A DNA stretch of 16,650 nucleotides from the UHGV virus genome UHGV-0207574; one strand, 5' to 3'. The position numbers were made by a program, and so were the translations under genes. A model generated the notes under the pieces. That model searched no databases. It was given only the letters and a program-made list of their open reading frames with translations, and was not told where the DNA came from. Shown here piece by piece: positions 1,010 through 13,754 of this stretch. Position 1 is the first letter of the stretch. Every line of letters starts with the position of its first letter. This DNA is from a virus.

Positions 1010-1103
1010 TGAATAAAACCACGAGTTCCTGGTGTGCCTTATTCGGCCTGCTAGTTCGAATTTAATTTACGGTTTTTATGTGGTTTTAGGGATAAACACA
1101 AGG

Positions 1104-1119
1104 ATGGTGTCCCCTGCAG
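1104..1119. repeat. att-right core (direct repeat of the argW 3' end)
   Basis: ATGGTGTCCCCTGCAG is identical to 13679-13694; flanking sequence diverges immediately on both sides. Confidence 0.8.
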
Positions 1120-1176
1120 ACATCTACTTGAGGCGGCAGGGGATTGATTGGAATGGTGTTTTTTAGATGTGAAAAA

Positions 1177-1198
1177 TATTTTACCCGCTATTTTACCC
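1177..1198 (+). repeat. Two direct copies of TATTTTACCC (1177-1186, 1189-1198) next to att-right and the torI 3' end; candidate recombination-protein binding sites
   Basis: Seen directly. The same octamer (as GGGTAAAA / TTTTACCC) recurs three times beside the integrase start at the other prophage end (13519-13563). Confidence 0.4.
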
Positions 1199-1393
1199 AT
1201 TGGCGCGGCTTAAGAGCTTATTTTTGAATTCACAATGGTCACGATATAACCATCTTGCTCGCCCGTGGATAACTTTGGCTTTTGGTAGGTCGCCGGACTT
1301 AATCCGGTCGTAGATGAAGGTTTTACCAAAGCCAGTATCGGCCATGATGAATTTCAAATCAACCAGTGAATCAGGCTGTAGTTCGTGTTGCAT
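1193..1393 (-). CDS. torI: Excisionase / recombination directionality factor TorI (also described as an inhibitor of the Tor response regulator)
   Basis: 66-aa ORF MQHELQPDSLVDLKFIMADTGFGKTFIYDRIKSGDLPKAKVIHGRARWLYRDHCEFKNKLLSRANG, a winged-helix Xis/AlpA-like small protein. Matches my recollection of KplE1 TorI. Sits next to att-right. Confidence 0.85.
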   Translation of the reverse strand: MQHELQPDSLVDLKFIMADTGFGKTFIYDRIKSGDLPKAKVIHGRARWLYRDHCEFKNKLLSRANG

Positions 1394-1412
1394 GAGTGCT
1401 ATCTCCGAATAT

Positions 1413-1428
1413 GGAATCGAACCTGCAA
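1413..1428. other. Internal 16-bp fragment identical to the argW variable-loop/T-arm region
   Basis: GGAATCGAACCTGCAA at 1413-1428 is identical to 13694-13709 inside the argW gene. It lies ~20 bp upstream of the torI start codon and ~300 bp inside the prophage. Confidence 0.5.
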
Positions 1429-1517
1429 ATCAGGCAATAAAAAGCCGCATTGATGCAGCAATGGTAGGTCTGGATATCTTGAGAAATGAACAGGCCTCAT
1501 CGAGTGTGAGACTGTGG

Positions 1518-1862
1518 TTAGTCCTTGCGTAGCTCGCTGATTCTTCTGTAAGTCTCTGGTGCTTTGTTTCCGTGTATCTTCATTTCAGACTTCAACAGAG
1601 CAACGAGGGAATCCCATTCGTTGAGGATGCCTTTGAATGCCGGAACGCGCTTTGCAACCTTGTCGAATGAATCTCTGATTTCTGGAATCTGCTCAACAAG
1701 CGCAACGCATCGCCGGAAATCTGCTGCGTCATGGGGAGCGCCGAAGTGATGACCATAGATATTCTTTTTCAGTCCACATGCGATTGAGGCAAGAGTTGCG
1801 CTACTTATGCCAACATCGCCAGTCGATTGCCATTTCAAAACCTTCATAGCCAAATCTGACAT
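1518..1862 (-). CDS. Hypothetical phage protein (114 aa)
   Basis: ORF track frame 1518..1889. The ATG at 1862 has a GGAGA RBS (GGAGACAAGAA ATG) and gives MSDLAMKVLKWQ...; the longer start at 1889 would lie inside a terminator hairpin. I do not recognise a family. Confidence 0.55.
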   Translation of the reverse strand: MSDLAMKVLKWQSTGDVGISSATLASIACGLKKNIYGHHFGAPHDAADFRRCVALVEQIPEIRDSFDKVAKRVPAFKGILNEWDSLVALLKSEMKIHGNKAPETYRRISELRKD

Positions 1863-1872
1863 TTCTTGTCTC

Positions 1873-1898
1873 CAATAAAAAACCGCCATCAGGCGGCT
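1873..1898 (-). terminator. Putative intrinsic terminator on the minus strand (GCCGCC-TGAT-GGCGG followed by TTTTTTATT)
   Basis: Minus-strand sequence CAAGCCGCCTGATGGCGGTTTTTTATTGGAG: a short GC stem, 4-nt loop and T-tract, immediately upstream of the RBS of the 1518..1862 ORF. An A-tract on the other side means it could act in both directions. Confidence 0.4.
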
Positions 1899-1962
1899 TG
1901 GTGTTCTTTCAGTTCTTCAATTCGAATATTGGTTACATTGTTTTCATATATGAATAAATAAA

Positions 1963-2142
1963 TTAGCTTTTTTCGTTGCCTTCGCGTTCTTTATTAATTT
2001 TGACAAACTCGTTTTTACCACGCTCTCCAAATGCGTCTTTAGAGTCGTTGTATCCGCAATCGCAGCACACATAATCACCAGACCATCCACGCATTGTTTT
2101 TTCTTTTGCAATATTTCCAGAACCGCATTTTGGACAAGACAT
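1963..2142 (-). CDS. Small zinc-ribbon protein (CPKC...CCDCG), 59 aa
   Basis: The ATG at 2142 is preceded by GGAGG (GGAGGTAGTGAT ATG) and gives MSCPKCGSGNIAKEKTMRGWSGDYVCCDCGYNDSKDAFGERGKNEF..., with two Cys pairs spaced as in a zinc ribbon. The ORF track start at 2175 is probably an overextension. Confidence 0.55.
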   Translation of the reverse strand: MSCPKCGSGNIAKEKTMRGWSGDYVCCDCGYNDSKDAFGERGKNEFVKINKEREGNEKS

Positions 2143-2238
2143 ATCACTACCTCCAAAGCATGAGTGAGATGACAACGTAACATTGATTGGAGATTAACAA
2201 TAGATTGCTGATGTAAAAGATATGTATAAGCTTCGCTT

Positions 2239-3066
2239 TCAAAGTGGAGGCTCTGGTAGCGGCATCCAGTGAGTTACGTCATCCAAGATATTTCCTGATA
2301 AATACGTGAAAGCTCTATATTTTTTGTAATCAATTGGATTTACAACCCAGTTCCAATATGCTGCCACGATTTCACCTTGACTAAATGCCAGTAACATTTT
2401 GGTGTCTTCCGGCATTCTCTCACTACAGCTTATCCAACCATCTGGAATTACCGGAGAGTTGCCAGATGGCTCGTTCAACTTGTAAGTTTGGCTTACAGGT
2501 TCGGCACCATGAAGCATGGCGTCGCTCCGCTCTATGCCATCCAGCGCGATTCGCAGTGCCTGAATTGTGGTAGAGCTATCGTTTGGGGCTATTCCATATC
2601 GCTCGAATACAGCTAAATGGTTGCGCATAATCTCAGGCGTAAGCTCTTTGTAAGCATAAGCAAGAGGCTCTGATGCATTATCCGGCACAACCGACGCAGG
2701 CGCGGCAGCATAAACAGGAATAACGTCCGCTTCACGAACCTGCATTGCATAGGCAACGATGTTTGCTGCGCTTGGCGTGTTCTTTGCGATCTCAGCGATA
2801 TAAGCAAAACCGCCAACAGACGCCGTTAACGATTTACGCTCCAGTTCATCGAAAAGCGTCAGGCCATCTACTGGCTTTTGCTCCCGGTGCATTCTGGTTA
2901 TTTCTTCGAAAAGGATTTTGTGTGGCCGGCTGTAAAATGAGTCAGGCTTCAGCATCGCCAGAACTTTCTGGACGCGCTCACTGCTGTCATCATCCAGAAG
3001 CAATCCACCAATCACCGCCTGCTCTGCCTCGATGCTATGGGGCGGCGCATAAAAATTATCGGTCAT
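2239..3066 (-). CDS. Chimeric replication-module protein: DnaB-helicase N-terminal domain fused to an Ead/Ea22-like region and a DUF551-like C-terminus; no helicase ATPase core
   Basis: The ATG at 3066 gives MTDNFYAPPHSIEAEQAVIGGLLLDDD ... LTASVGGFAYIAEIAKNTPSAANIVAYAMQVREA, which closely resembles the primase-interacting N-terminal domain of DnaB (PHSIEAEQ and SVGGFAY..KNTPSAANI motifs). The C-terminus (WISCSERMPEDT ... VTHWMPLPEPPL) resembles DUF551. Start overlaps the stop of the upstream O-like gene by 11 nt. Confidence 0.7.
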   Translation of the reverse strand: MTDNFYAPPHSIEAEQAVIGGLLLDDDSSERVQKVLAMLKPDSFYSRPHKILFEEITRMHREQKPVDGLTLFDELERKSLTASVGGFAYIAEIAKNTPSAANIVAYAMQVREADVIPVYAAAPASVVPDNASEPLAYAYKELTPEIMRNHLAVFERYGIAPNDSSTTIQALRIALDGIERSDAMLHGAEPVSQTYKLNEPSGNSPVIPDGWISCSERMPEDTKMLLAFSQGEIVAAYWNWVVNPIDYKKYRAFTYLSGNILDDVTHWMPLPEPPL

Positions 3067-3946
3067 CGTGTTCACCCTCACGAACTTTCAGGTAGGTATT
3101 GTCGTTAAGCAGGAAATCAAATCCCTTTTTGTGCCAGACGGTTCCGCGTTGATGGTTTGGGCGTTCTTCGAACATCCATCGGCAATTTTCGCCTACGTAG
3201 ATCAAATAATTTCTCCAGTCCTGCATCGTGAACCCATGCCCGTCAAGCTGGCGGGTTATCACTCCGGCTTTGCGCCAGAACGTTCGGATCTGGTTTTTAC
3301 GCTTGTCATTCAGTGCGCGGATTCTTGGCGCTTCAGGAAGGATTTCGTGGTAAGCATCGACAACATCCTGACAGCTGACGGAAGGTTTTTTCTTGTCAGA
3401 CTTTTTGTCTGCTGTGGCACTCTCTAATACGTCAGTATTAGAGATATTATTTATATTATTGTTTATGGACAACCGTTGGACAACCGTTGGACAATCTCCG
3501 CTGAGAGCCGCGCCATTACTGGTGTTTGCGTTGGACAACCGTTGGACAACCGTTGGACAATTTTTTGCCTGAAAATCGTCATATTTAACGATTGTAAACA
3601 GGCTAAATTTCTTCCCCATCGAGCAAATATTAAGCATCCCTTTCGACTCAAAAGTCCGTAATAAGCTCCGAACTTTGTTGTCGGGGATGAATGTTTCTCT
3701 GACCAGCGACGGGCGTCCAGTTATCATCTGACCGCGATCAACAGTTATCGGACCGATATCCGTATTGACGACAGTAGATTCGTGATTAGCCTTGAGGATT
3801 AAGTGAAGCCAAAGATGTACTGCCTGAGAGTCCTTATAGAGCCTGCTGTCCATAAACTGGCGGTGTATAGAGACATACCCCATACTGGATGCCTCCTGAT
3901 GTTGTACAGGGTTATGCCTGTAATCAGCTAACTTAACGACGCCCAT
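3056..3946 (-). CDS. Replication initiator, lambda O-like, with the origin iterons inside the gene
   Basis: 296-aa ORF with an N-terminal region resembling the phage O origin-binding domain (HLWLHLILKANHES...). A central linker is encoded by tandem 11-bp repeats, giving the duplicated peptide CPTVVQRLSN. Translationally coupled to the downstream gene. Confidence 0.7.
   Translation of the reverse strand: MGVVKLADYRHNPVQHQEASSMGYVSIHRQFMDSRLYKDSQAVHLWLHLILKANHESTVVNTDIGPITVDRGQMITGRPSLVRETFIPDNKVRSLLRTFESKGMLNICSMGKKFSLFTIVKYDDFQAKNCPTVVQRLSNANTSNGAALSGDCPTVVQRLSINNNINNISNTDVLESATADKKSDKKKPSVSCQDVVDAYHEILPEAPRIRALNDKRKNQIRTFWRKAGVITRQLDGHGFTMQDWRNYLIYVGENCRWMFEERPNHQRGTVWHKKGFDFLLNDNTYLKVREGEHDDR
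3465..3560. repeat. Putative replication origin: six iterons (unit TTGGACAACCG) in two clusters of three (3465-3496, 3531-3560)
   Basis: Direct tandem repeats seen in the sequence, lying inside the O-like gene as lambda ori lies inside O. Next to them in the gene's direction is an AT-rich tract (3440-3464) and a perfect 9-bp inverted repeat CTCTAATAC-GTCA-GTATTAGAG (3422-3443). Confidence 0.7.
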
Positions 3947-4094
3947 GTTTCACTCCTGCTTTGGCTAGTCTGTAAACACCAACAAGGCGCTCTGCGAACG
4001 CCCTGTTATTTGCTGCGGCTACCACTAATCCCTCAGGTGAATCAGGGTGTCGAATCTCTTCTTTTTCCTGGTATTTCTTACGACGTTTTGTCAT
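3933..4094 (-). CDS. Small basic hypothetical protein (53 aa), not in the ORF track (below the length cutoff)
   Basis: The ATG at 4094 is preceded by AGGAG (ACAGGAGTAATT ATG) and gives MTKRRKKYQEKEEIRHPDSPEGLVVAAANNRAFAERLVGVYRLAKAGVKHGRR. Its 3' end overlaps the RBS and start of the O-like gene. Lies between the cII-like and O-like genes. Confidence 0.4.
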   Translation of the reverse strand: MTKRRKKYQEKEEIRHPDSPEGLVVAAANNRAFAERLVGVYRLAKAGVKHGRR

Positions 4095-4128
4095 AATTAC
4101 TCCTGTGGATTGATCCAGTCTTTCTACA

Positions 4129-4407
4129 TCAGGCCTCGAAGAATTCGCCGTTCTTCGGGGCTTTTTCTTTTGTCAGCATTCTGGCTACTTTCTTAGCCAG
4201 TTCCGCCAACTCCTCGTCTTCAACACCCCATTCAAGAACAGCAAGAAGCATTCCCATTTTGGGGATGAAGCTGTCTTTCCATCGCGAAATTTGCGATTCA
4301 TTAATTCCTAACGCGTCAGCAACCTTTCGCTGACCACGTACAGCAATTCGATTCAGGATGTTGCTTGTAATTGCATTCGCTTTCTTGCGAGTACTTGTAA
4401 GTTCCAT
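4129..4407 (-). CDS. CII-like transcriptional regulator (92 aa)
   Basis: The ATG at 4407 with an AGGAAA RBS gives MELTSTRKKANAITSNILNRIAVRGQRKVADALGINESQISRWKDSFIPKMGMLLAVLEWGVEDEELAELAKKVARMLT..., closely resembling lambda CII (GVDKSQISRWKRDWIPKFSMLLAVLEWGV). The ORF track frame extends upstream to 4494. Confidence 0.75.
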   Translation of the reverse strand: MELTSTRKKANAITSNILNRIAVRGQRKVADALGINESQISRWKDSFIPKMGMLLAVLEWGVEDEELAELAKKVARMLTKEKAPKNGEFFEA

Positions 4408-4463
4408 ATGTAAGTATTTCCTTAACAAATAAGAAGTTATGCGCATCAACTTATGCGCGTTGT

Positions 4464-4509
4464 ATTCCCGCATTTCGGCGGGAATGAGGACCATGACTGT
4501 TAAAGAGCG
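4464..4509 (-). promoter_or_regulatory. nutR-like antitermination site: boxA CGCTCTTTAACA (4498-4509) and a boxB-like hairpin (4464-4485)
   Basis: Minus strand reads CGCTCTTTAACA, a 12-nt spacer, then ATTCCCGC-CGAAAT-GCGGGAAT (8-bp stem, GAAA-containing loop). It sits between the cro fragment and the cII-like gene, as nutR does in lambda. Confidence 0.5.
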
Positions 4510-4515
4510 GTGTTA

Positions 4516-4614
4516 CTATTTGTTTTTCTTGTTGCTTGGGAAAGGACGAACTTCCTCTCCAATCACACTGCCATCAGGCTTTACCGTAAACGACGCTATA
4601 CAGCCAGATGGCAA
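4516..4614 (-). pseudogene. cro gene, 3' fragment only
   Basis: Minus-strand frame ending at stop 4516-4518 translates to ...CIASFTVKPDGSVIGEEVRPFPSNKKNK, matching the lambda Cro C-terminus (INADGSVYAEEVKPFPSNKKTTA). There is no N-terminal part and no in-frame start. Confidence 0.65.
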
Positions 4615-4730
4615 TCAACTGCGCAGTGCATGAGAAAAAGCCCGCTCTGATGTTCAGCCTTGAAATGCCAGGTGATCAGATACTGGAAAAACTGGTAGGG
4701 CAGAAGTCTGGTGTTAACCCGAATATTTTT
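4611..4730 (+). pseudogene. Fragment of a DnaB-family helicase core (region just after Walker A), on the plus strand
   Basis: The first ~40 codons of the ORF track frame 4608..5093 read AINCAVHEKKPALMFSLEMPGDQILEKLVGQKSGVNPNIF, resembling E. coli DnaB (AMNLCENAAMLQDKPVLIFSLEMPSEQIMMRSL). The rest of that frame looks like non-coding alt-frame sequence. Confidence 0.4.
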
Positions 4731-4759
4731 TACCTTCCGGCGACAAATGACGCTGATGA

Positions 4760-5281
4760 CGGCTACTCGGGGAAAACATCCTTTCCTGCGATACGGAGAA
4801 GAGTATCCGGGAGCGATTTTCTGTTTACCAGGTGGCGGGGCAGCGTGCCGGAAACGACGATGATTTCGGTGAGGCCACCACCACCGCGCTGCGGGCCCGC
4901 ACAGAGGACGCATTTATTGCCCGTTACCGTCCGATGTATATCAGGCAGACAGGGCAGGCTACGGGGGCAGGCTGTATTGCCCGTGCGGACTTTGAAGCCC
5001 GGCAACGGGCGGCGCGGACGGATGAAACCACCTATGTGGTGCAGGGCTGGCGACAGGGTAACGGTACGCTGTGGCAGCCCAACCAGCGGGTGATTGTCTT
5101 CGATCCGGTCTGTGGTTTCGACAATACCGAACTGCTTGTCTCGGAAGTCACGTTTACTCAGGACCAGAATGGCACCCTGACGGAAATCCGTGTCGGCCCA
5201 CCTGATGCTTATCTGCCTGAACCCGAAGCCCCCGGCGCGCGGAAAAAGAAAAAAGCCAGAGTACAGGAGGACCCGTTCTGA
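4760..5281 (+). pseudogene. 5'-truncated baseplate-hub/tail gene (Mu gp44 / P2 gpD-like), C-terminal part
   Basis: The frame is open from the stop at 4757-4759 with only a GTG at 4832 as a possible start. Its stop overlaps the start of the downstream gpV-like gene (TGATG), and position and composition match the upstream member of a Mu-type baseplate cluster. Family assignment is by position, not recognised sequence. Confidence 0.45.
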
Positions 5282-5829
5282 TGAGGACGATTGAAGCCAT
5301 GCAGCGACAACTCCTCGGCCTGATTGGGCGGGCCGTGGTGAAAAGCATCAGTGCCGCCACGAAATGTCAGACCGTGGATGTGTCCCTGATTGCCGGTGAA
5401 CCCAAAGCCGGGATTGAACATCTTGAACCCTACGGTTTTACCGCAAGGGCAAACAGCGGTGCGGAAGCGGTGGTGTTGTTTCCGGATGGCGACCGTTCTC
5501 ATGCGGTGGTTGTTACGGTGTCGGACCGGCGTTACCGCCTGAAAGGGCTGCAGACGGGTGAGGTGGCTGTCTATGACGATCAGGGGCAGTCCGTGACGCT
5601 GACCCGGGAGGGGATCGTGGTGGACGGTGCAGGTAAAACGATCACGTTTCGCAATGCGCCCAGAGCACGTTTTGAAATGGACCTGGAAGTGACCGGACAG
5701 GTGAAAGACCTGTGCGACTCCGGCGGCACCACCATGTCAGCGATGCGGCTTGCCTATAACGGGCATCGTCACAGAGAGAACGGTCAGGGCAGTAACACCG
5801 ACAAACCTGATAAAGCGATGGAGGCATGA
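5281..5829 (+). CDS. Baseplate assembly/spike protein, gpV-like (Mu gp45-like)
   Basis: 182-aa ORF, translationally coupled on both sides, GC-rich, with a C-terminal DSGGTT motif that I recall from P2 gpV-type proteins. Confidence 0.65.
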   Translation: MRTIEAMQRQLLGLIGRAVVKSISAATKCQTVDVSLIAGEPKAGIEHLEPYGFTARANSGAEAVVLFPDGDRSHAVVVTVSDRRYRLKGLQTGEVAVYDDQGQSVTLTREGIVVDGAGKTITFRNAPRARFEMDLEVTGQVKDLCDSGGTTMSAMRLAYNGHRHRENGQGSNTDKPDKAMEA

Positions 5830-6254
5830 TGGTACTGTGGCTGACGGTGAACGGTAAACGCACCTGCGCCAGCGCACCGCTGGATCCGCTGACCCGCGCC
5901 GTGGTGATTTCCCTGTTTACCTGGCGGCGGGCGGAGCCTGATGACAACGCCGACGTCCCGATGGGATGGTGGGGGGATACCTGGCCTGCGGTACAGAATG
6001 ACCGTTACGGCTCCCGGCTGTGGCTGCTTCAGCGCAGCAAACTGACCAATCAGCTGGTGCAGACGGTAAGGGGGTATATCCGCGAATGTCTGCAATGGAT
6101 GATTGATGACGGCGTGGTGTCCCGTATTGATCTGGATATCCGCCGCACCGGGATTAATGAACTGGGTAACAGTATCACTCTCTGGCGTCGTGACGGACCG
6201 GTAATGATTTCTTTTGATGATCTGTGGAGTGCGATAACGCATGGCGGACAGTGA
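5826..6254 (+). CDS. Baseplate protein, phage GP46 family (gpW-like)
   Basis: 142-aa ORF with start overlapping the upstream stop (ATGA). Size and position between the V-like and J-like genes are typical of a Mu-type baseplate cluster. Confidence 0.6.
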   Translation: MMVLWLTVNGKRTCASAPLDPLTRAVVISLFTWRRAEPDDNADVPMGWWGDTWPAVQNDRYGSRLWLLQRSKLTNQLVQTVRGYIRECLQWMIDDGVVSRIDLDIRRTGINELGNSITLWRRDGPVMISFDDLWSAITHGGQ

Positions 6255-7299
6255 ATTTCAGCGCCCGACGCTGGCAGAAAATATCAGTATGCTCCGTAAC
6301 GATTTATTCGCCAGGCTGGACGTCAGCGACACGCTCCGGCGCATGGATGAAGACGTGCGGGCAAAGGTGTATGCGGCGGCGCTGCATACGGTTTACGGGT
6401 ACATCGATTATCTGGCAATGAACATGCTGCCTGACCTGTGCGATGAGTCCTGGCTGGCGCGACATGCTGCGATGAAACGGTGTCCGCGCAAGGGGGCCAC
6501 GGCTGCCAGCGGGTATATGCGCTGGGAAGGTGTCAGCGATGGCCTGAAGGTGACCGCCGGGAGTGTTATTCAGCGCGATGACCTGGTTCAGTACACGGCA
6601 ACTGCCGATGCAACCAGCTCCGGTGGTGTCCTGCGCGTGCCGATCGCCTGCTCAAGTTCAGGCGCGGTCGGTAACGCTGACGACGGTACGTCATTAATCC
6701 TGGTCACGCCGGTGAATGGTCTGCCGTCTTCCGGTGTGGCTGACACCCTGACAGGCGGATTTGATACTGAAGATCTGGAAACGTGGCGCGCCCGCATCAT
6801 TGAGCGGTATTACTGGACGCCGCAGGGCGGGGCTGACGTGGACTATGTCGTCTGGGCTAAAGAAGTGCCCGGCATTACCCGCGCATGGACATACCGACAC
6901 TGGATGGGAACGGGGACTGTCGGTGTGATGATTGCCAGCAGTGACCTGATTAACCCCATTCCGGAAGAATCAACGGAAACGGCAGCAAGACAACATATCG
7001 GGCCACTGGCCCCGGTGGCAGGCTCTGATTTGTATGTATTCAGGCCGGTGGCGCACAAAGTGGATTTTCATATCCGCGTGACGCCGGACACACCGGAAAT
7101 ACGGGCTGCCATTACCGCAGAGTTGCGTTCATTCCTGCTGCGTGATGGTTATCCGCAGGGAGAGCTGAAGGTATCGCGTATCAGTGAAGCGATTTCCGGT
7201 GCGAACGGGGAATACAGCCATCAGTTGCTTGCTCCGGCGGACAATATCTCCATTGCAAAAAATGAACTGGCGGTTCTGGGGACGATTTCATGGACGTGA
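6241..7299 (+). CDS. Baseplate J-like protein (Mu gp47-like)
   Basis: 352-aa ORF in the conserved V-W-J-I order, overlapping its neighbours. Confidence 0.65.
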
Positions 7300-7874
7300 C
7301 AAACGATGATTACATCCGTCTGTTGTCGGCACTGCTGCCGCCCGGTCCGGCGTGGTCAGCCAGCGATCCGGCGATTGCCGGTGCGGCACCGTCATTAACT
7401 CGTGTTCATCAGCGTGCGGATGCCCTGATGCGGGAGCTGGATCCGCGCACCACCACCGAACTGATAAATCGCTGGGAGCGTCTGTGCGGCCTGCCGGATG
7501 AATGTATTCCCGCAGGGACACAGACCCTTCGCCAGCGTCAGCAACGGCTGGATGCGAAGGTTAACCTGGCGGGTGGCATCAACGAGGATTTTTATCTTGC
7601 ACAGCTTGCTGCCCTGGGCAGACCAGATGCCACCATCACGCGATACGACAAAAGCACGTTCACCTGCTCATCGGCCTGTACTGACGCTGTGAATGCGCCG
7701 GAATGGCGGTATTACTGGCAGGTCAACATGCCAGCCGCCGCCAACACCACCTGGATGACATGTGGCGATCCCTGTGATTCCGCACTGCGTATCTGGGGTG
7801 ACACCGTTGTCGAGTGTGTGCTTAACAAACTCTGCCCGTCGCATACCTACGTAATTTTTAAATATCCGGAGTAA
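7290..7874 (+). CDS. Tail protein, Mu gp48 / YmfQ-like (P2 gpI position)
   Basis: 194-aa ORF directly downstream of the J-like gene and upstream of the tail-fibre gene. Confidence 0.6.
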
Positions 7875-7877
7875 TCC

Positions 7878-8519
7878 ATGCATCGTATAGACACGAAAAC
7901 CGCGCAGAAGGATAAGTTCGGCGCGGGTAAGAACGGTTTTACCCGTGGTAACCCCCAGACCGGCACGCCTGCCACCGATCTGGATGATGACTACTTTGAC
8001 ATGTTGCAGGAGGAGCTTTGCAGCGTTGTGGAGGCCTCCGGTGCCAGCCTGGAGAAGGGGCGGCATGACCAGCTGCTTACCGCGCTTCGTGCGCTGCTGT
8101 TAAGCCGCAAGAATCCGTTTGGCGATATCAAATTGGACGGCACGGTGCAAAAGGCTCTCGAAAACCTTGGTTTGGGAGAAGCGGCTAAAAGAAATGTAGG
8201 GACAGGGGCGAATCAGATACCTGATATGGGTAGCTTCACGCTTTCTGTTTCAGGTACTGGATATCAAAAATTGCCATCCGGTTTAATTATTCAATGGGGG
8301 CCAATTGATGTTCCGCTGACGTCTCAGGACACAGTAACCTATTTTCCGATTGCATTTCCGAATAGATGTCTGCGGGTATTTGCGACTCAGGATTACACTC
8401 CCGGCAGTGCAAATGTTGGCTATATAGCTTGTGCCGGTTATAACCAGGACCCGGTGAAATTTATTTCCAGAGCAGGCGTACCCGGTCTCGGTGCTTCATT
8501 TTTCGCATTAGGGTGTTAA
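7878..8519 (+). CDS. Tail fibre protein (short; constant N-terminal part plus variable C-terminal part)
   Basis: GGAG RBS. The N-terminus [74 protein letters not shown] is the conserved tail-fibre N-terminal region of Mu/P2-type fibres. GC content drops sharply after ~8180. Confidence 0.7.
8155..8180. promoter_or_regulatory. Candidate relic serine-invertase crossover site (gix/hix-like) inside the tail-fibre gene
   Basis: CTCTCGAAAACC-TT-GGTTTGGGAGAA is an imperfect 26-bp dyad with the AAACC-NN-GGTTT core typical of Gin/Hin/Pin sites as I recall them. It lies at the constant/variable junction of the fibre and coincides with the GC drop. Confidence 0.35.
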
Positions 8520-8545: not shown

Positions 8546-8986
8546 ATGAATCACATATATTCCGCGACTACAAACTCTTTCTATCCCTTGGAGATGAAAG
8601 AGGATTACACGCAAGCTGGCTCATGGCCAGATGATGCTGTTGAAGTTGATGAGCAAGTGTATATTGAGTTTTCCGGATTACCGCCGAAAGGAAAAATCCG
8701 TATCGCTGGAGAAAATGGTTTTCCTGCATGGTCTGAAATTCCACCACCAACACATGAGGAACAGATTGCTGCAGCCGAACTGAAAAAGCAGCAATTGATT
8801 AATCAGGCCAACGATTATATGAACAGTAAACAATGGGCTGGTAAAGCGGCTATTGGTCGTCTGAAAGGTGAGGAACTGGCGCAATATAATTTGTGGCTGG
8901 ATTATCTGGACGCACTGGAGCTGGTCGATACTTCCAGTGCGCCAGATATTGAATGGCCTACTCCTCCGGCAGTTCAGGCCAGATGA
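8546..8986 (+). CDS. Tail fibre assembly protein (Tfa/U-like)
   Basis: 146-aa ORF with a GGAG RBS, ending ...SSAPDIEWPTPPAVQAR, a typical Tfa C-terminus. Immediately downstream of the tail-fibre gene. Confidence 0.7.
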   Translation: MNHIYSATTNSFYPLEMKEDYTQAGSWPDDAVEVDEQVYIEFSGLPPKGKIRIAGENGFPAWSEIPPPTHEEQIAAAELKKQQLINQANDYMNSKQWAGKAAIGRLKGEELAQYNLWLDYLDALELVDTSSAPDIEWPTPPAVQAR

Positions 8987-9260
8987 CATCCGGCGCGGTG
9001 CTGGTATCTGTTGCCGTCACCGCGTCAATGTAATCCAGCACAGTGTTAAGTCGGGAGGTCTCTGCCTGCATCAGCTTCCGCCCAGCCCGTAATTTCAGTT
9101 GAATCAGACTAATGGAAGCCATTGCAGTATCAATCAGTGACTGACGCTGTGCTTCTGCCGCGTCTACTGCGGCGTGATGCTGTGCCTCAGTATCGGTCAC
9201 CCATTTCTCACCATCCCATTTATCGTATGGCGTTAATGGGGCGATAGTCGCGGGACGCAT
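8958..9260 (-). pseudogene. Second tail fibre assembly gene (C-terminal half only), convergent with and overlapping the first
   Basis: Minus-strand frame MRPATIAPLTPYDKWDGEKWVTD...TSTAPDVIWPELPEE has a Tfa-like C-terminus. It is blocked upstream by a stop at 9318-9320, so at most ~120 codons remain. Overlaps the 3' end of the plus-strand tfa by ~29 bp. Confidence 0.5.
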
Positions 9261-9284
9261 ACAAACATAACCCCTGGATGTTAT

Positions 9285-9566
9285 GTGTCTATCGAGAATC
9301 AAAGTGGAAGTCCTTATGTTAAGTATAAGACAGGAATCACTTATAACGATAATCAGTTAGTATATGTATCTATCACTGTTGATGATAATATCAGCACTTG
9401 GTTCTGGAGGGGGTTTGTTGTGGGCAATGATGCATTTAAGTTATCGTCTGCAGATAGAGGAGATATTACAATAAACAACGAATCAGGGCATTTGATAGTC
9501 AATACCGCAATTCTATCAGGAGATATAGTCACTCTAAGAGGAGGAGAAATTAGGTTGGTATTATAG
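9285..9566 (+). other. Orphan ORF (93 codons, GTG start, no internal Met), possibly a 3' gene fragment
   Basis: VSIENQSGSPYVKYKTGITYNDNQ...DIVTLRGGEIRLVL is rich in N/T/S/V/I, like the beta-rich tip of a fibre. There is no ATG and only a weak RBS. It lies in low-GC DNA between the tfa remnant and gtrC. Confidence 0.25.
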
Positions 9567-9570
9567 CTTG

Positions 9571-9592
9571 TGCGCGCCATGATTGGCGCGCA
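9571..9592. repeat. Perfect GC-rich palindrome TGCGCGCCA-TGAT-TGGCGCGCA between the convergent stop codons of the orphan ORF and gtrC
   Basis: 9-bp perfect inverted repeat with a 4-nt loop and no adjacent T-tract on either strand. Could be a terminator-like hairpin or a protein-binding palindrome. Confidence 0.45.
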
Positions 9593-9600
9593 ATTTAAAC

Positions 9601-10932
9601 TTAGTGCTTTACATCGCTATTGTCTTGATTTCTTTGAATTATTTTATAAATTAAAAAAACGACTGTTATGTATAAGCAAAGGTCGAACGAAAAATACATT
9701 CCAAATAAATGCTTGCTTAAATCTCTATATCCTTCCCCGAAAAATGACACATAAAATTGAGATATTCCAAAAAGAGATACTACAAATAAAGATGCCTTTA
9801 TTTTATTATTTCTAATAAAAATAGAAGCAATAAAAAATAATAACAATGATATAAATCTAATGTTTTTAAATATATTGTCTTTTATGTTAGTAATAGTCGT
9901 TAGTATGTTTGATTCTCCATATATTACGTGTAGTTTTTTATATACATGGAAATAATTTTCTTTATACTGAGACATCACACCATCATCAAATGGAAGTTTG
10001 AAGATGGTGCTTGGTTTGCTAACCAATAAAAAGAGTGCATTCGAAAACGTTTCATCTTTATGAGATTCGAAACATTCCGTTCCAACTTCTGTTGGGGTTG
10101 CGCCAAATGATATGTCGAATTTATTACCCCAAGCATCTAACCCAACACACTTATCATCAACATACGATGGCATTTTATACCCGTTGTTTTTCATATAAAG
10201 ATAACTACCGAAGTATGTTGCATGGTACTTATTTAATTCAACAACACCTTTTGAATAAGATATTGCAAATATTGACGCAAGCAAGCACACCACGCATATT
10301 ACAGATTTAATAATTAGTTTGTGTCTATCAAAAAAAATATAATATGAATACACTATTAGTGGGGTTAATATAAATTGATTTTTAGCAGTAGATATTATTA
10401 GCAACGAAAAAAATAGCAAAAGCATAGATTTATTGTTTTTGCATGTTAATGAATACACCAAAAATGGAAGGAAAATTATAACTATTTGCTCTTGATAGAA
10501 TGATGCAAACATTGACAGTGTTGATGAAGAACACATAAGAAAAGCTAAAATAAAGAATGTAAATAAAGTTACATACCTTTCTGTTTTTATATATGAAGTA
10601 AATATCGCATATAATGAATAAATATATATTACTTTTAGAAATAACGATAACACCCTAGCATCAAGATATTCAGTAAAAATGCTAATAAACAGGACGTATG
10701 TATACAAAATATAACTATATGAACTTATATACTCATAGCTATCAATTGAATCAATATGACCTTTCAATTTATACAATAAAGGTAAGTCATATGTAAATGC
10801 TGGTATGTCTTCAATTAATGGCTTAATGGCTCTTCCGAAATCAGATGTATTTAACATCATTATGTTTTTAGATAAGGCGCAAATAATCAAAACAAAAGAT
10901 ATATACAATGATACTTTTATTGCTTTATTCAT
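9601..10932 (-). CDS. gtrS: Serotype-specific O-antigen glucosyltransferase, GtrC-type polytopic membrane protein (K-12 equivalent yfdI/gtrS)
   Basis: 443-aa, very AT-rich, highly hydrophobic multi-pass ORF. Third gene of a gtrA-gtrB-gtrC operon and translationally coupled to gtrB. The family is defined by position and topology rather than sequence conservation. Confidence 0.7.
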
Positions 10933-11849
10933 TTTTTGACTCTCTTGATGATGTATTTCGGGCGTTTTTTGGTTTCAATGTATGTGCGTCCAATATATTC
11001 ACCTAATACTCCTATTCCAATCATCTGAATTCCACCTAAAAACAGTATTGAAACAAGTAGTGAAGGATATCCCCTAACAGCATTTCCAAATATGATAGTA
11101 TCTAAAATCATCCACGCCCCATAAATAAATGCTACACTGGCTACCACTAACCCTATGTATGTCCAGATGCGAAGAGGGAATGTGGAAAAGCTTGTAATAC
11201 CCTCAAGTGCTAAATTCCAAAGTTTCCATCCATTAAATTTTGTATCTCCAGCAATTCTTTCCGCTCGCACGTATTCAACAATATCTGTCTTTCCTCCTAC
11301 CCAGCTCAGAATACCTTTCATGAAAAGGTTTCGTTCTGGCATAAGTTTAATATTTTCGACAACATCACGGCTCATCAGCCTGAAATCACCAACATTCTCT
11401 TCAATTTTAGGATTGCTTATTTTATTGTGGAGCTTATAGAACCACTCAGCCGTTTTTCGCTTCAGGCGTCCATCAGTTGAGCGGTCAGATCTTTTAGCAA
11501 GAACCATATCAGCACCTGCTTGCCATTTTTCAATAAGATGAGGAATAACCTCAATCGGGTCTTGCAGGTCAACATCAATTGGGATTATCGCATCCCCGGT
11601 TGCATGGTCTAACCCTGCAAACAATGCTGGTTCTTTACCAAAGTTGCGTGTAAATGACAGCGGAACAACTAGAGGATCTGAAACAGCCAGAGCATTAATG
11701 ATTGACTCCGTAGCGTCTTTGCTGCCGTCATTTATGAAAACGATTTCCACTTCATATGACTTCAATTCTTCGAATTCACGTACCGTTTTATAAAAAATTG
11801 GTATCGCTTCTTCTTCATTGAAGACAGGAACTACAAGAGATATCTTCAT
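10929..11849 (-). CDS. gtrB: Bactoprenol glucosyltransferase GtrB (GT2 family)
   Basis: 306-aa [23 protein letters not shown]...INDGSKDAT...DVDLQDP: a GT2 catalytic domain followed by C-terminal transmembrane helices, as in GtrB/YfdH. Confidence 0.85.
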
Positions 11850-12208
11850 TTCGCATCCCTAAAGACAATGAACTTTGAATAGACGAAACCGCACACCAGG
11901 CTGATGGCGGAGAAGGTGACAAGAGTTATCATCGGGGGAAGTGCGCATCTATCAGCAGCCCATCCAACAGTAGCACTCAGTGTCCCCATGAACCCAACAT
12001 ATAGCATGTAGCGCATCGTTGTAGTCGATGCCTTGAATGTGAATTTTGCATTCGCGAAGAAGCTAAAGCTCACAGCCACAACGAAACCTGCGAAGTTTGC
12101 AAGAGCTTGGTTTGTATGCGCGACATAGATACAAACACCAAAAACCACCCAGTGTATAAGGGTGTTCAGCACACCAATAGAGGTGTACTTTGCAAATAGC
12201 TTTAACAT
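11846..12208 (-). CDS. gtrA: GtrA family flippase for undecaprenyl-phosphate glucose
   Basis: 120-aa small four-helix membrane protein, first gene of the operon, overlapping gtrB by 4 nt. Confidence 0.8.
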
Positions 12209-12360
12209 TTCTTCTATCAGCTAATAATCAAAGGAATGAAGTCTATCATCCAAGTCTTAATCGATCGATACTTGCTGTGGTTGATGAGACAAAACTTATA
12301 CACACAAAGCTTTGCACTGGATTGCAAGACTTTGTGCTATTCGATAGTTGTTAAGGTCGC

Positions 12361-13518
12361 TCACTCCACCTTCTCATCAAGCCAGTCCGCCCACCATTGC
12401 ATCATTTCTCTGCGTTTATCGAGATACTGAGCATGGTTGTAAATCCCACGCACAGATCCGCCGTTTGCATGTGCCAGTTGCACTTCAATAGCGTCAGCAG
12501 GCCATTCGTGCTCGTTCATAATCGTGCTGAATTCATGCCTGAATCCGTGACCGCTTTCCAGACCCTCATAGCCGATTTGTTTGATCACAAGCAGTACCGC
12601 GTTCTCGCAGATTGGCTTCTTCTTATCGTTGCGCCCGGCAAAAACAAACTCTGAGACTGGTTTGGTGATGGAGCTTAGCGTAGTGAGAAGTTCAACTACC
12701 TGGTCTGACATAGGAACCACATGAATTTTGCGTCCTTTCATCACACTGGCGTCGATGGTGATAATCCTATTTTCAAAATCGACGTTCTTCCATAGCATGG
12801 AACGAAGCTCTTTCGTTCTTAGGGCTGTGTAGCGTAAAACTTTGGTCGCAATGAGCGATACGATACTTCCTGAAAATGTTGCCAGTGCTTTGTTGAATGC
12901 CGGGATCTGGTCTGCAGGAAGAAACGGGAAGTTCTTCTTGCGGTATCCCTTCATGGCGTCAGCAAGGTCAGGTGCCGGGTTATATTTAGCCCTTCCGGTG
13001 ACAATAGCGTAACGGAAAACCTCGCCGCATCTTCTGCGTGCTTTGTTGGCTCGTTCCATTGCACCGCGATCTTCAAACCTGCGGATTACTTCCAGCAGTT
13101 GCATCGGCTCAATATCCTGAATTTCAAGGCCGCCAATGATAGGTAAAATGTCGTCGTCAAACATTTTGGCAAGTTCAGTTGCATACCCTACTGACCATAC
13201 TTGCTTCTTGTGCTCGTACCATTCCTTGTAAATCGCACTAAAGGAATTGTTGTTAGACGAAGCCTTTTTCGCCTTTACAGGATCGATGCCAACCGAGATG
13301 TCTTTCCTCGCAGTCCATGCTTTATCCCTTGCCTCCTGCAAAGTCATAAGCGGATATTTTCCGACGGTCAGGATTTTCTCCTTACCGTCAATCTTGTAGC
13401 GAAGCTGCCATACCTTTTTCCCTGACACAGGGACATAAAGGTACAGGCCATTACCATCGAGAAGGCGGTATGGTTTTTCTTTCGGCTTTGCTGCTTCAAT
13501 CTGCTTAACGGTGAGCAT
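12361..13518 (-). CDS. intS: Tyrosine-family site-specific integrase (IntS-like)
   Basis: From the ATG at 13518 (MLTVKQIEAAKPKEKPYRLLDGNGLYLYV...) the protein has a P4-type integrase N-terminus and a C-terminal catalytic domain (...HGFRHEFSTIMNEH...GIYNHAQYL). The ORF track starts at an upstream GTG at 13554. Adjacent to the tRNA. Confidence 0.85.
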   Translation of the reverse strand: MLTVKQIEAAKPKEKPYRLLDGNGLYLYVPVSGKKVWQLRYKIDGKEKILTVGKYPLMTLQEARDKAWTARKDISVGIDPVKAKKASSNNNSFSAIYKEWYEHKKQVWSVGYATELAKMFDDDILPIIGGLEIQDIEPMQLLEVIRRFEDRGAMERANKARRRCGEVFRYAIVTGRAKYNPAPDLADAMKGYRKKNFPFLPADQIPAFNKALATFSGSIVSLIATKVLRYTALRTKELRSMLWKNVDFENRIITIDASVMKGRKIHVVPMSDQVVELLTTLSSITKPVSEFVFAGRNDKKKPICENAVLLVIKQIGYEGLESGHGFRHEFSTIMNEHEWPADAIEVQLAHANGGSVRGIYNHAQYLDKRREMMQWWADWLDEKVE

Positions 13519-13678: not shown

Positions 13679-13694
13679 ATGGTGTCCCCTGCAG
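13679..13694. repeat. att-left core overlapping the 3' end of argW
   Basis: ATGGTGTCCCCTGCAG, identical to 1104-1119. Confidence 0.8.
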
Positions 13695-13754
13695 GAATCG
13701 AACCTGCAATTAGCCCTTAGGAGGGGCTCGTTATATCCATTTAACTAAGAGGAC
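13680..13754 (-). tRNA. argW: tRNA-Arg (anticodon CCU)
   Basis: Minus-strand 75-nt sequence GTCCTCTTAGTTAAATGGATATAACGAGCCCCTCCTAAGGGCTAATTGCAGGTTCGATTCCTGCAGGGGACACCA. It has the acceptor stem, an anticodon loop CU-CCU-AA, a GGTTCGATTCC T-arm and an encoded CCA end. Confidence 0.9.

Follow-up and report, generated by a model that had tools for sequence, protein, structure and literature searches.

In Escherichia coli K-12, GtrABS of the cryptic prophage CPS-53 (KpLE1) adds the glucose side chain of the O16 antigen (PMC11990801), and in phage SfIV of Shigella flexneri the characterised enzyme GtrIV adds glucose in alpha-1,6 linkage to the N-acetylglucosamine (GlcNAc) of the O-unit (PMC3259042). 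A low-G+C, swappable third gene is a known general trait of gtr clusters (PMC3259042, PMC3688519, PMC7685785). The locus considered here occupies positions 9601–12208 of the viral genome UHGV-0207574, a stretch of 16,650 nucleotides (nt) given as one strand and referred to in its entirety as the window. This segment is almost certainly the O-antigen glucosylation operon gtrA-gtrB-gtrS (yfdG-yfdH-yfdI) from a cryptic prophage of CPS-53/KpLE1 type that is integrated at argW. The operon has already been described, named and tested in E. coli K-12, and there is nothing new in its identity.

Positions 9400–12500 match E. coli K-12 MG1655 at 100.0 %. Within the operon, base-by-base comparison finds only one difference from K-12, which is synonymous and affects codon 267 of gtrS; it is one of a handful of single nucleotide polymorphisms that separate the two sequences from 7940 onward. 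All three Gtr proteins are identical to those of CPS-53, and the operon occupies the same place. In K-12 the matching genes are annotated yfdG, yfdH and yfdI (the last unnamed in RefSeq) and adjoin intS and argW, the transfer RNA (tRNA) gene for tRNA-Arg(CCU). RefSeq product names at this locus are misleading, in that yfdG, a member of the GtrA family, is called ‘bactoprenol glucosyl transferase’, and yfdI, which encodes GtrS, is called ‘hypothetical protein’. The window is nevertheless not K-12 itself. K-12 genomes account for 61 % of it, and the highest coverage is 80 %, reached by 2 of the 5426 complete E. coli genomes that made up the survey sample. Left of approximately position 7940, the window contains Mu-like baseplate, CII and replication genes, whereas K-12 has yfdM, yfdN and yfdO.

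The three open reading frames (ORFs) are co-oriented on the minus strand and all are intact (Table 1). A preliminary description made from the sequence had placed a three-gene gtr operon at 9601–12208, and the ORFs lie at exactly those coordinates. Both gene junctions are ATGA stop/start overlaps of 4 base pairs (bp), as is usual where the genes of an operon are translationally coupled. The interval of 152 bp between the intS stop (12361) and the gtrA start (12208) also agrees with that description. The order A, B and type gene beside the integrase and attachment (att) region is that of Gtr clusters, and SfIV, SfII and P22 are alike in this respect. The operon is prophage cargo, located between the two att cores. 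Direct-repeat analysis places these cores, ATGGTGTCCCCTGCAG, at 13679–13694 and 1104–1119, where they bound an element of 12.6 kb.

GtrA matches the Pfam family PF04138 (GtrA_DPMS_TM) over its full length (profile positions 1–117 of 117) with 50.6 bits against a cut-off of 26.1, and matches PHROG 2224, ‘GtrA-like O-antigen conversion’, with an E value of 5.5e-70; it presumably serves as the flippase. GtrB matches Pfam PF00535 (E 2.8e-31) and the GtrB PHROG (E 3.7e-177), and can be aligned over its full extent, residues 2–302, with the Synechocystis GtrB of known structure (5EKP; E 1.2e-88). In the Synechocystis enzyme the key residues are D94 and D96 of the DXD motif, R122, the putative catalytic acid D157, and R200 (PMC4728340). 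All five are kept in the window, where they correspond to D92 and D94, R120, D155 and R198. GtrB of the window combines a GT2 (GT-A) domain with the DXD motif, the catalytic aspartate, both arginines and a C-terminal membrane anchor. The Synechocystis protein differs in being a cyanobacterial housekeeping enzyme that is not phage-borne.

For GtrS, the closest characterised relative is GtrIV of SfIV, with 40 % identity over 424 residues (E 6e-99), and the protein is polytopic and periplasm-facing, as well as homologous to this serotype-specific glucosyltransferase. In a sequence search against solved structures YfdI returned no match at E ≤ 1, and comparison was made by fold in its place. The AlphaFold model of GtrS is confident and has the GT-C fold of ArnT, PglB, Pmt, ALG and PIG-M, with a conserved acidic residue in the first periplasmic loop. 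As modelled, this fold would be the one expected of an enzyme that takes glucose from undecaprenyl-phosphate-glucose (UndP-glucose) in the periplasm. An alignment of 40 sequences reveals 24 invariant residues, among them D31 and R34, which lie in the loop that follows the first helix, and the block C262-G264-D266-A267-W268-G269. This block falls in the stretch D260–W269, the catalytic site proposed by the GtrIV study. The assignment of the three proteins to the GtrA, GtrB and GtrC families, on which the preliminary description depended, holds on profile, structure and homology tests alike. Close relatives of GtrS are also present in Salmonella enterica (82–87 % identity; one partial form has 694 member sequences), and the specificity type of GtrS is thus common to E. 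coli and Salmonella.

SfIV gtrA-gtrB-gtrIV has the same gene order beside the integrase and upstream of tail-fibre genes, and has the promoter block in common with the window. The type enzymes GtrIV of SfIV and GtrS of K-12 are both reported to act on GlcNAc. The att arrangement is different. In SfIV, attP, which resembles the 3′ end of a tRNA, lies between int and gtrA, so that in the lysogen gtr and int are at opposite ends; in the window intS abuts gtrA, and homology to SfIV begins only approximately 125 bp upstream of gtrA. The gtrABC cluster of P22 has the same three-gene plan beside attP and int, a terminator after gtrC, a homologous upstream hairpin and a homologous extended −10 with a GATC at about −33. 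It differs in having approximately 70 bp more, on which four GATC sites and OxyR half-sites are located and which the window lacks.

The suggestion in the preliminary description that the specificity gene was acquired separately from gtrAB is supported by sequence comparison at three levels. Identity to SfIV is 88 % for GtrA and 89 % for GtrB, but 40 % for the type protein. Across the surveyed genomes, gtrAB-like DNA was found in 691 and the gtrS of the window in 365; all 365 copies are at least 95 % identical to it, and many are in K-12 derivatives. In the more distant gtrAB loci, DNA similarity ends 19–58 bp inside the 3′ end of gtrB, and an unrelated membrane protein follows the break, either a ‘glucosyltransferase domain’ protein of 476–490 amino acids (aa) or a DUF6056 protein of 520 aa. 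In each of the five clusters examined, the G+C content of the type gene is below that of gtrAB. The values are 32.6 % against 43–45 % in SfIV and 30.8 % against 43–45 % in CUVM3, while two other loci have approximately 32–40 % across gtrC against approximately 45–51 % across gtrAB. The gtrS of the window is the lowest of the five.

Within the window, whose overall G+C content is 46.5 %, the operon descends from 46.0 % in gtrA through 39.5 % in gtrB to 27.5 % in gtrS. The earlier estimate of approximately 28 % for the type gene was therefore sound, as was, for gtrA, the figure of approximately 42–45 % given jointly for gtrA and gtrB, which is a few points too high for gtrB. In gtrB the G+C content falls toward the 3′ end, to 35 % and then to 29 % in the last 170 nt. 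A sliding calculation agrees that no 1.3 kb of the window is richer in A+T than the type gene: the 1332-bp stretch of lowest G+C content starts at 9608, which is gtrS, and every stretch of that length avoiding gtrS has at least 41 %. Amino acid composition contributes to the low value (43 % of residues are F, Y, M, I, N or K). Composition as the sole cause is ruled out by the third codon positions, at which G+C is 24 % in gtrS, compared with 51 % in gtrA and 53 % in intS.

An operon promoter, considered possible in the preliminary description, is supported by homology to the gtr promoter of P22. Homology to the corresponding region of SfIV, SfII, epsilon34, HK620 and P22 extends over the 125 bp upstream of gtrA, and a block containing the extended −10, GATGATAGACTT, is invariant in CPS-53, SfIV, SfII, epsilon34 and HK620. 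The predicted promoter comprises the hexamer TCGATC at the −35 position (12263–12268), which includes the only GATC, a spacer of 17 nt, and the extended −10 TGaTAGACT (12240–12248). The last of these is matched in P22 by TGcTACACT, in the region annotated there as the gtr promoter. Conserved in five relatives, the lone GATC is situated 17 nt upstream of the −10 hexamer, at about −33; GATC4 of P22 starts at −33 (PMC2909390), a spacing equal to that in the window. From this homology the operon likely has its own promoter, with transcription starting near 12233. What the analysis adds to earlier work is that the gtr promoter of K-12 and Shigella type appears to be a short homologue of the P22 gtr promoter without its Dam/OxyR module. 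In HK620 the same hairpin and promoter block precede a different cargo, the O-antigen polymerase-like gene hkcF; the promoter module seems to be common to different surface-modifying cargo genes beside attP.

The preliminary description also drew attention to a 10-bp palindrome with one GATC. The palindrome, ATCGATCGAT, is indeed present at 12260–12269, and it holds the sole GATC of the 152-bp intergenic region. As a signal it was rejected. Perfect 10-bp palindromes occur in the window at the level of chance (17 observed, 16.3 expected), and this one is broken in SfIV and SfII (ATCGATCAAT).

Hairpins are found on either side of the operon. The annotations of SfII, epsilon34 and HK620 give the homologue of the one following the intS stop as a rho-independent terminator; this hairpin is conserved in P22 and separates the operon from intS. 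At the other end, a G+C-rich hairpin lies 9 nt beyond the stop of gtrS and 6 nt beyond that of a convergent gene, yodE. The fold of 9480–9620 has a z-score of −2.99, none of 200 shuffled sequences was as stable, and P22 has an annotated terminator in the same position after gtrC. Termination of the gtr transcript would occur at this hairpin. The small annotated gene yodE, 9420–9566(+), converges on gtrS and has the G+C-rich hairpin in common with it, which may be a two-way terminator for both genes.

Table 1. Position, strand and basis of assignment of features of the gtr locus in the window
Feature	Position	Strand	Basis
G+C-rich hairpin UGCGCGCCA-AUCA-UGGCGCGCA, candidate operon end	9572–9591	.	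RNA fold
gtrC/gtrS/gtr(type) (yfdI), 443 aa, 27.5 % G+C, serotype-specific GT-C-fold glucosyltransferase	9601–10932	−	
gtrB (yfdH), 306 aa, GT2 (GT-A fold) UDP-glucose:undecaprenyl-phosphate glucosyltransferase	10929–11849	−	Pfam, PHROG, 5EKP alignment
gtrA (yfdG), 120 aa, small polytopic membrane protein, proposed UndP-glucose flippase	11846–12208	−	Pfam, PHROG, SfIV homology
Predicted gtr promoter	12240–12268	−	Homology to P22 gtr promoter
Terminator-like hairpin (9+5 bp), shortly past intS stop, upstream of gtr promoter	12302–12337	−	RNA fold
intS, prophage tyrosine integrase, directly upstream of operon	12361–13518	−	Pfam Phage_integrase, Phage_int_M, Arm-DNA-bind_3; annotated intS
argW, tRNA-Arg(CCU), integration site	13680–13754	−	ARAGORN

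In the mechanism proposed for the locus, GtrB, a membrane-anchored GT-A enzyme, would transfer glucose from uridine diphosphate (UDP)-glucose to undecaprenyl phosphate on the membrane's cytoplasmic face, and GtrA is thought to carry the resulting UndP-glucose to the periplasmic face. GtrS, with its GT-C fold, would then transfer glucose from UndP-glucose to the O-unit's GlcNAc, in K-12 as the side-branch glucose of O16. Modified in this way, the O-antigen would escape recognition by several O-antigen-dependent phages. Transcription of the operon would most likely proceed from its own promoter, with the extended −10 TGaTAGACT and the GATC at about −33. Gene identities, folds, catalytic residues, module boundaries and promoter homology come from the present analysis, and the product and the phage-resistance phenotype from the literature.

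The lipopolysaccharide profiling and phage-sensitivity assays proposed in the preliminary description have in effect been published for the identical K-12 genes (PMC11990801; bioRxiv 10.64898/2026.07.26.740846). A clean gtrS deletion in K-12 with restored O-antigen (wbbL+) renders the strain susceptible to Bas83-85, Bas87, Bas91, Bas98-101 and Ur-lambda (PMC11990801). That work, on the BASEL phage collection, groups them as three of the genus Dhillonvirus, two of the Gordonclarkvirinae, the Wifcevirus phages and Ur-lambda (PMC11990801). The yfdI mutant of the Keio collection has a shifted S-lipopolysaccharide modality (bioRxiv 10.64898/2026.07.26.740846, a 2026 preprint). Additionally, the K-12 system adds glucose to the GlcNAc of foreign O-antigens (PMC6436433), and deletion of yfdGHI frees lipid carrier and raises glycoconjugate yield (PMC10163571).

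No evidence contradicts the gtrABS assignment, but several points weigh against the reading of the locus given here. GtrS has no match in the local Pfam copy; a protein database tags the YfdI family as PF27133, which that copy did not report. Against NCBIfam NF051875 (glycan biosynthesis hexose transferase WsfD), GtrS scores 67.9 bits, below the cut-off of 80 (E 7e-19, residues 66–242 only). WsfD is a family related to GtrS, of which GtrS by the curated threshold is not a member. We know of no biochemical demonstration of flippase activity for GtrA. A generic sigma-70 consensus scan of the intergenic region returned no site, and an additional promoter scan returned only a weak 8/12 match too near the ATG, so that the promoter call rests on homology. 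No canonical U-tract follows the hairpin at the operon end on the gtr strand. Lastly, as the window is not K-12 itself, the O-antigen acceptor in the source strain is one that we infer. The missing Pfam match and the WsfD score below cut-off could also be taken to mean that the third gene encodes something other than a glucosyltransferase, such as another O-antigen modifier (e.g. an acyltransferase), or a polymerase- or ligase-like membrane protein in the gtrC position. Acyltransferases have been reported for some Salmonella ‘GtrC’ families, gtrC positions of other E. coli loci hold unrelated proteins, and the PHROG of YfdI is of ‘unknown function’, in keeping with its RefSeq label. Given the homology to GtrIV, the GT-C fold and the invariant residues in the proposed catalytic site, this is extremely improbable. 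A further reading, also highly improbable, is that the operon is silent and leaves the surface of the source strain unchanged, being a relic of a prophage in decay that has stayed intact by chance or is shut down because it is AT-rich foreign DNA. The prophage remnant, 12.6 kb long, lacks head and lysis genes, gtrS is of very low G+C content, and common K-12 laboratory strains make no O-antigen, all of which would suit such a relic. However, the three ORFs are intact and one synonymous base away from K-12, the same DNA is active in K-12, where gtrS, yfdI and yfdGHI mutants show phenotypes, and the promoter block is invariant across active phages.

Expression of a functional gtrABS operon could still be limited to part of the population. 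If the GATC of the palindrome were a switch under Dam methylation, as in P22 and Salmonella, only a fraction of cells would be glucosylated. Conservation of this GATC in five relatives at the position of P22 GATC4 is compatible with such a switch, and transient non-expression has been raised as a route by which lambda could have lysogenised K-12 (PMC11990801). The P22-type switch, however, requires two pairs of GATC sites, four in all, together with three OxyR half-sites (PMC2909390). The window has one GATC in 152 bp, a search for OxyR half-sites at 8/10 or more positions found none in the intergenic region, and by alignment the P22 segment of approximately 70 bp that carries the GATC and OxyR sites is absent. 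In this the region resembles Salmonella gtr(LT2_II), which has a single GATC, lacks an OxyR site and belongs to the non-varying type (PMC2909390); no phase variation is known for Shigella gtr operons (PMC3688519). The promoter thus lacks the features of the phase-variable Dam/OxyR type, and a switch of this kind is very unlikely here. Judged from its promoter sequence, the operon is probably not phase-variable in the manner of P22 and would be expressed constitutively. What the lone GATC, the lack of OxyR half-sites and the missing 70-bp module rule out is the P22-type signature, not other methylation-dependent control. The conserved GATC, overlapping the −35 position, might make gtrABS Dam-sensitive or heterogeneous through a factor other than OxyR, which we consider quite unlikely. 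If true, it would give transiently unglucosylated cells and would explain how lambda could have lysogenised O16 K-12, a question posed in PMC11990801.

Beyond the operon, the nearest phages to the prophage are the serotype-converting phages SfIV, SfV, SfII and SfI of Shigella flexneri, with approximately 93 % identity over the baseplate, tail-fibre and gtrAB genes. The prophage is a degraded relative of these phages. The region of approximately 1010–7940 retains Mu-type baseplate genes (homologues of gp45, gp46, gp47/J and gp48) and lambdoid early genes. Left of approximately 7940 there are a CII gene and a truncated gene of DnaB-like type, which is fused to DUF551. By appearance, the argW prophage of the window is related to the same SfIV-like phage as CPS-53 of K-12 but has decayed differently.

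Approximately six copies of an 11-bp iteron, TGGACAACCGT, are found in two clusters at 3466–3572, inside the ORF 3056–3946(−). This ORF has no Pfam match, adjoins the truncated DnaB-like gene and the CII gene, and belongs to the part missing from K-12. The iterons look like a lambdoid replication origin within an initiator gene. Two tail-fibre assembly genes, 8546–8986(+) and 8958–9302(−), face each other, the second being partial, and the same layout occurs in SfIV. The arrangement resembles the remains of an invertible tail-fibre segment; no invertase is present. At the integration site, a piece of argW adjoining the att core, GGAATCGAACCTGCAA (13694–13709), has an exact 16-nt copy at 1413–1428, within the prophage on the far side of torI. 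This copy may be left over from a second element that targeted argW, or from a longer attP.

The operon is a textbook case of lysogenic conversion and matters little beyond confirmation. Its recognised relevance lies in phage host range on O16 strains and in the drain on undecaprenyl phosphate in glyco-engineering strains.

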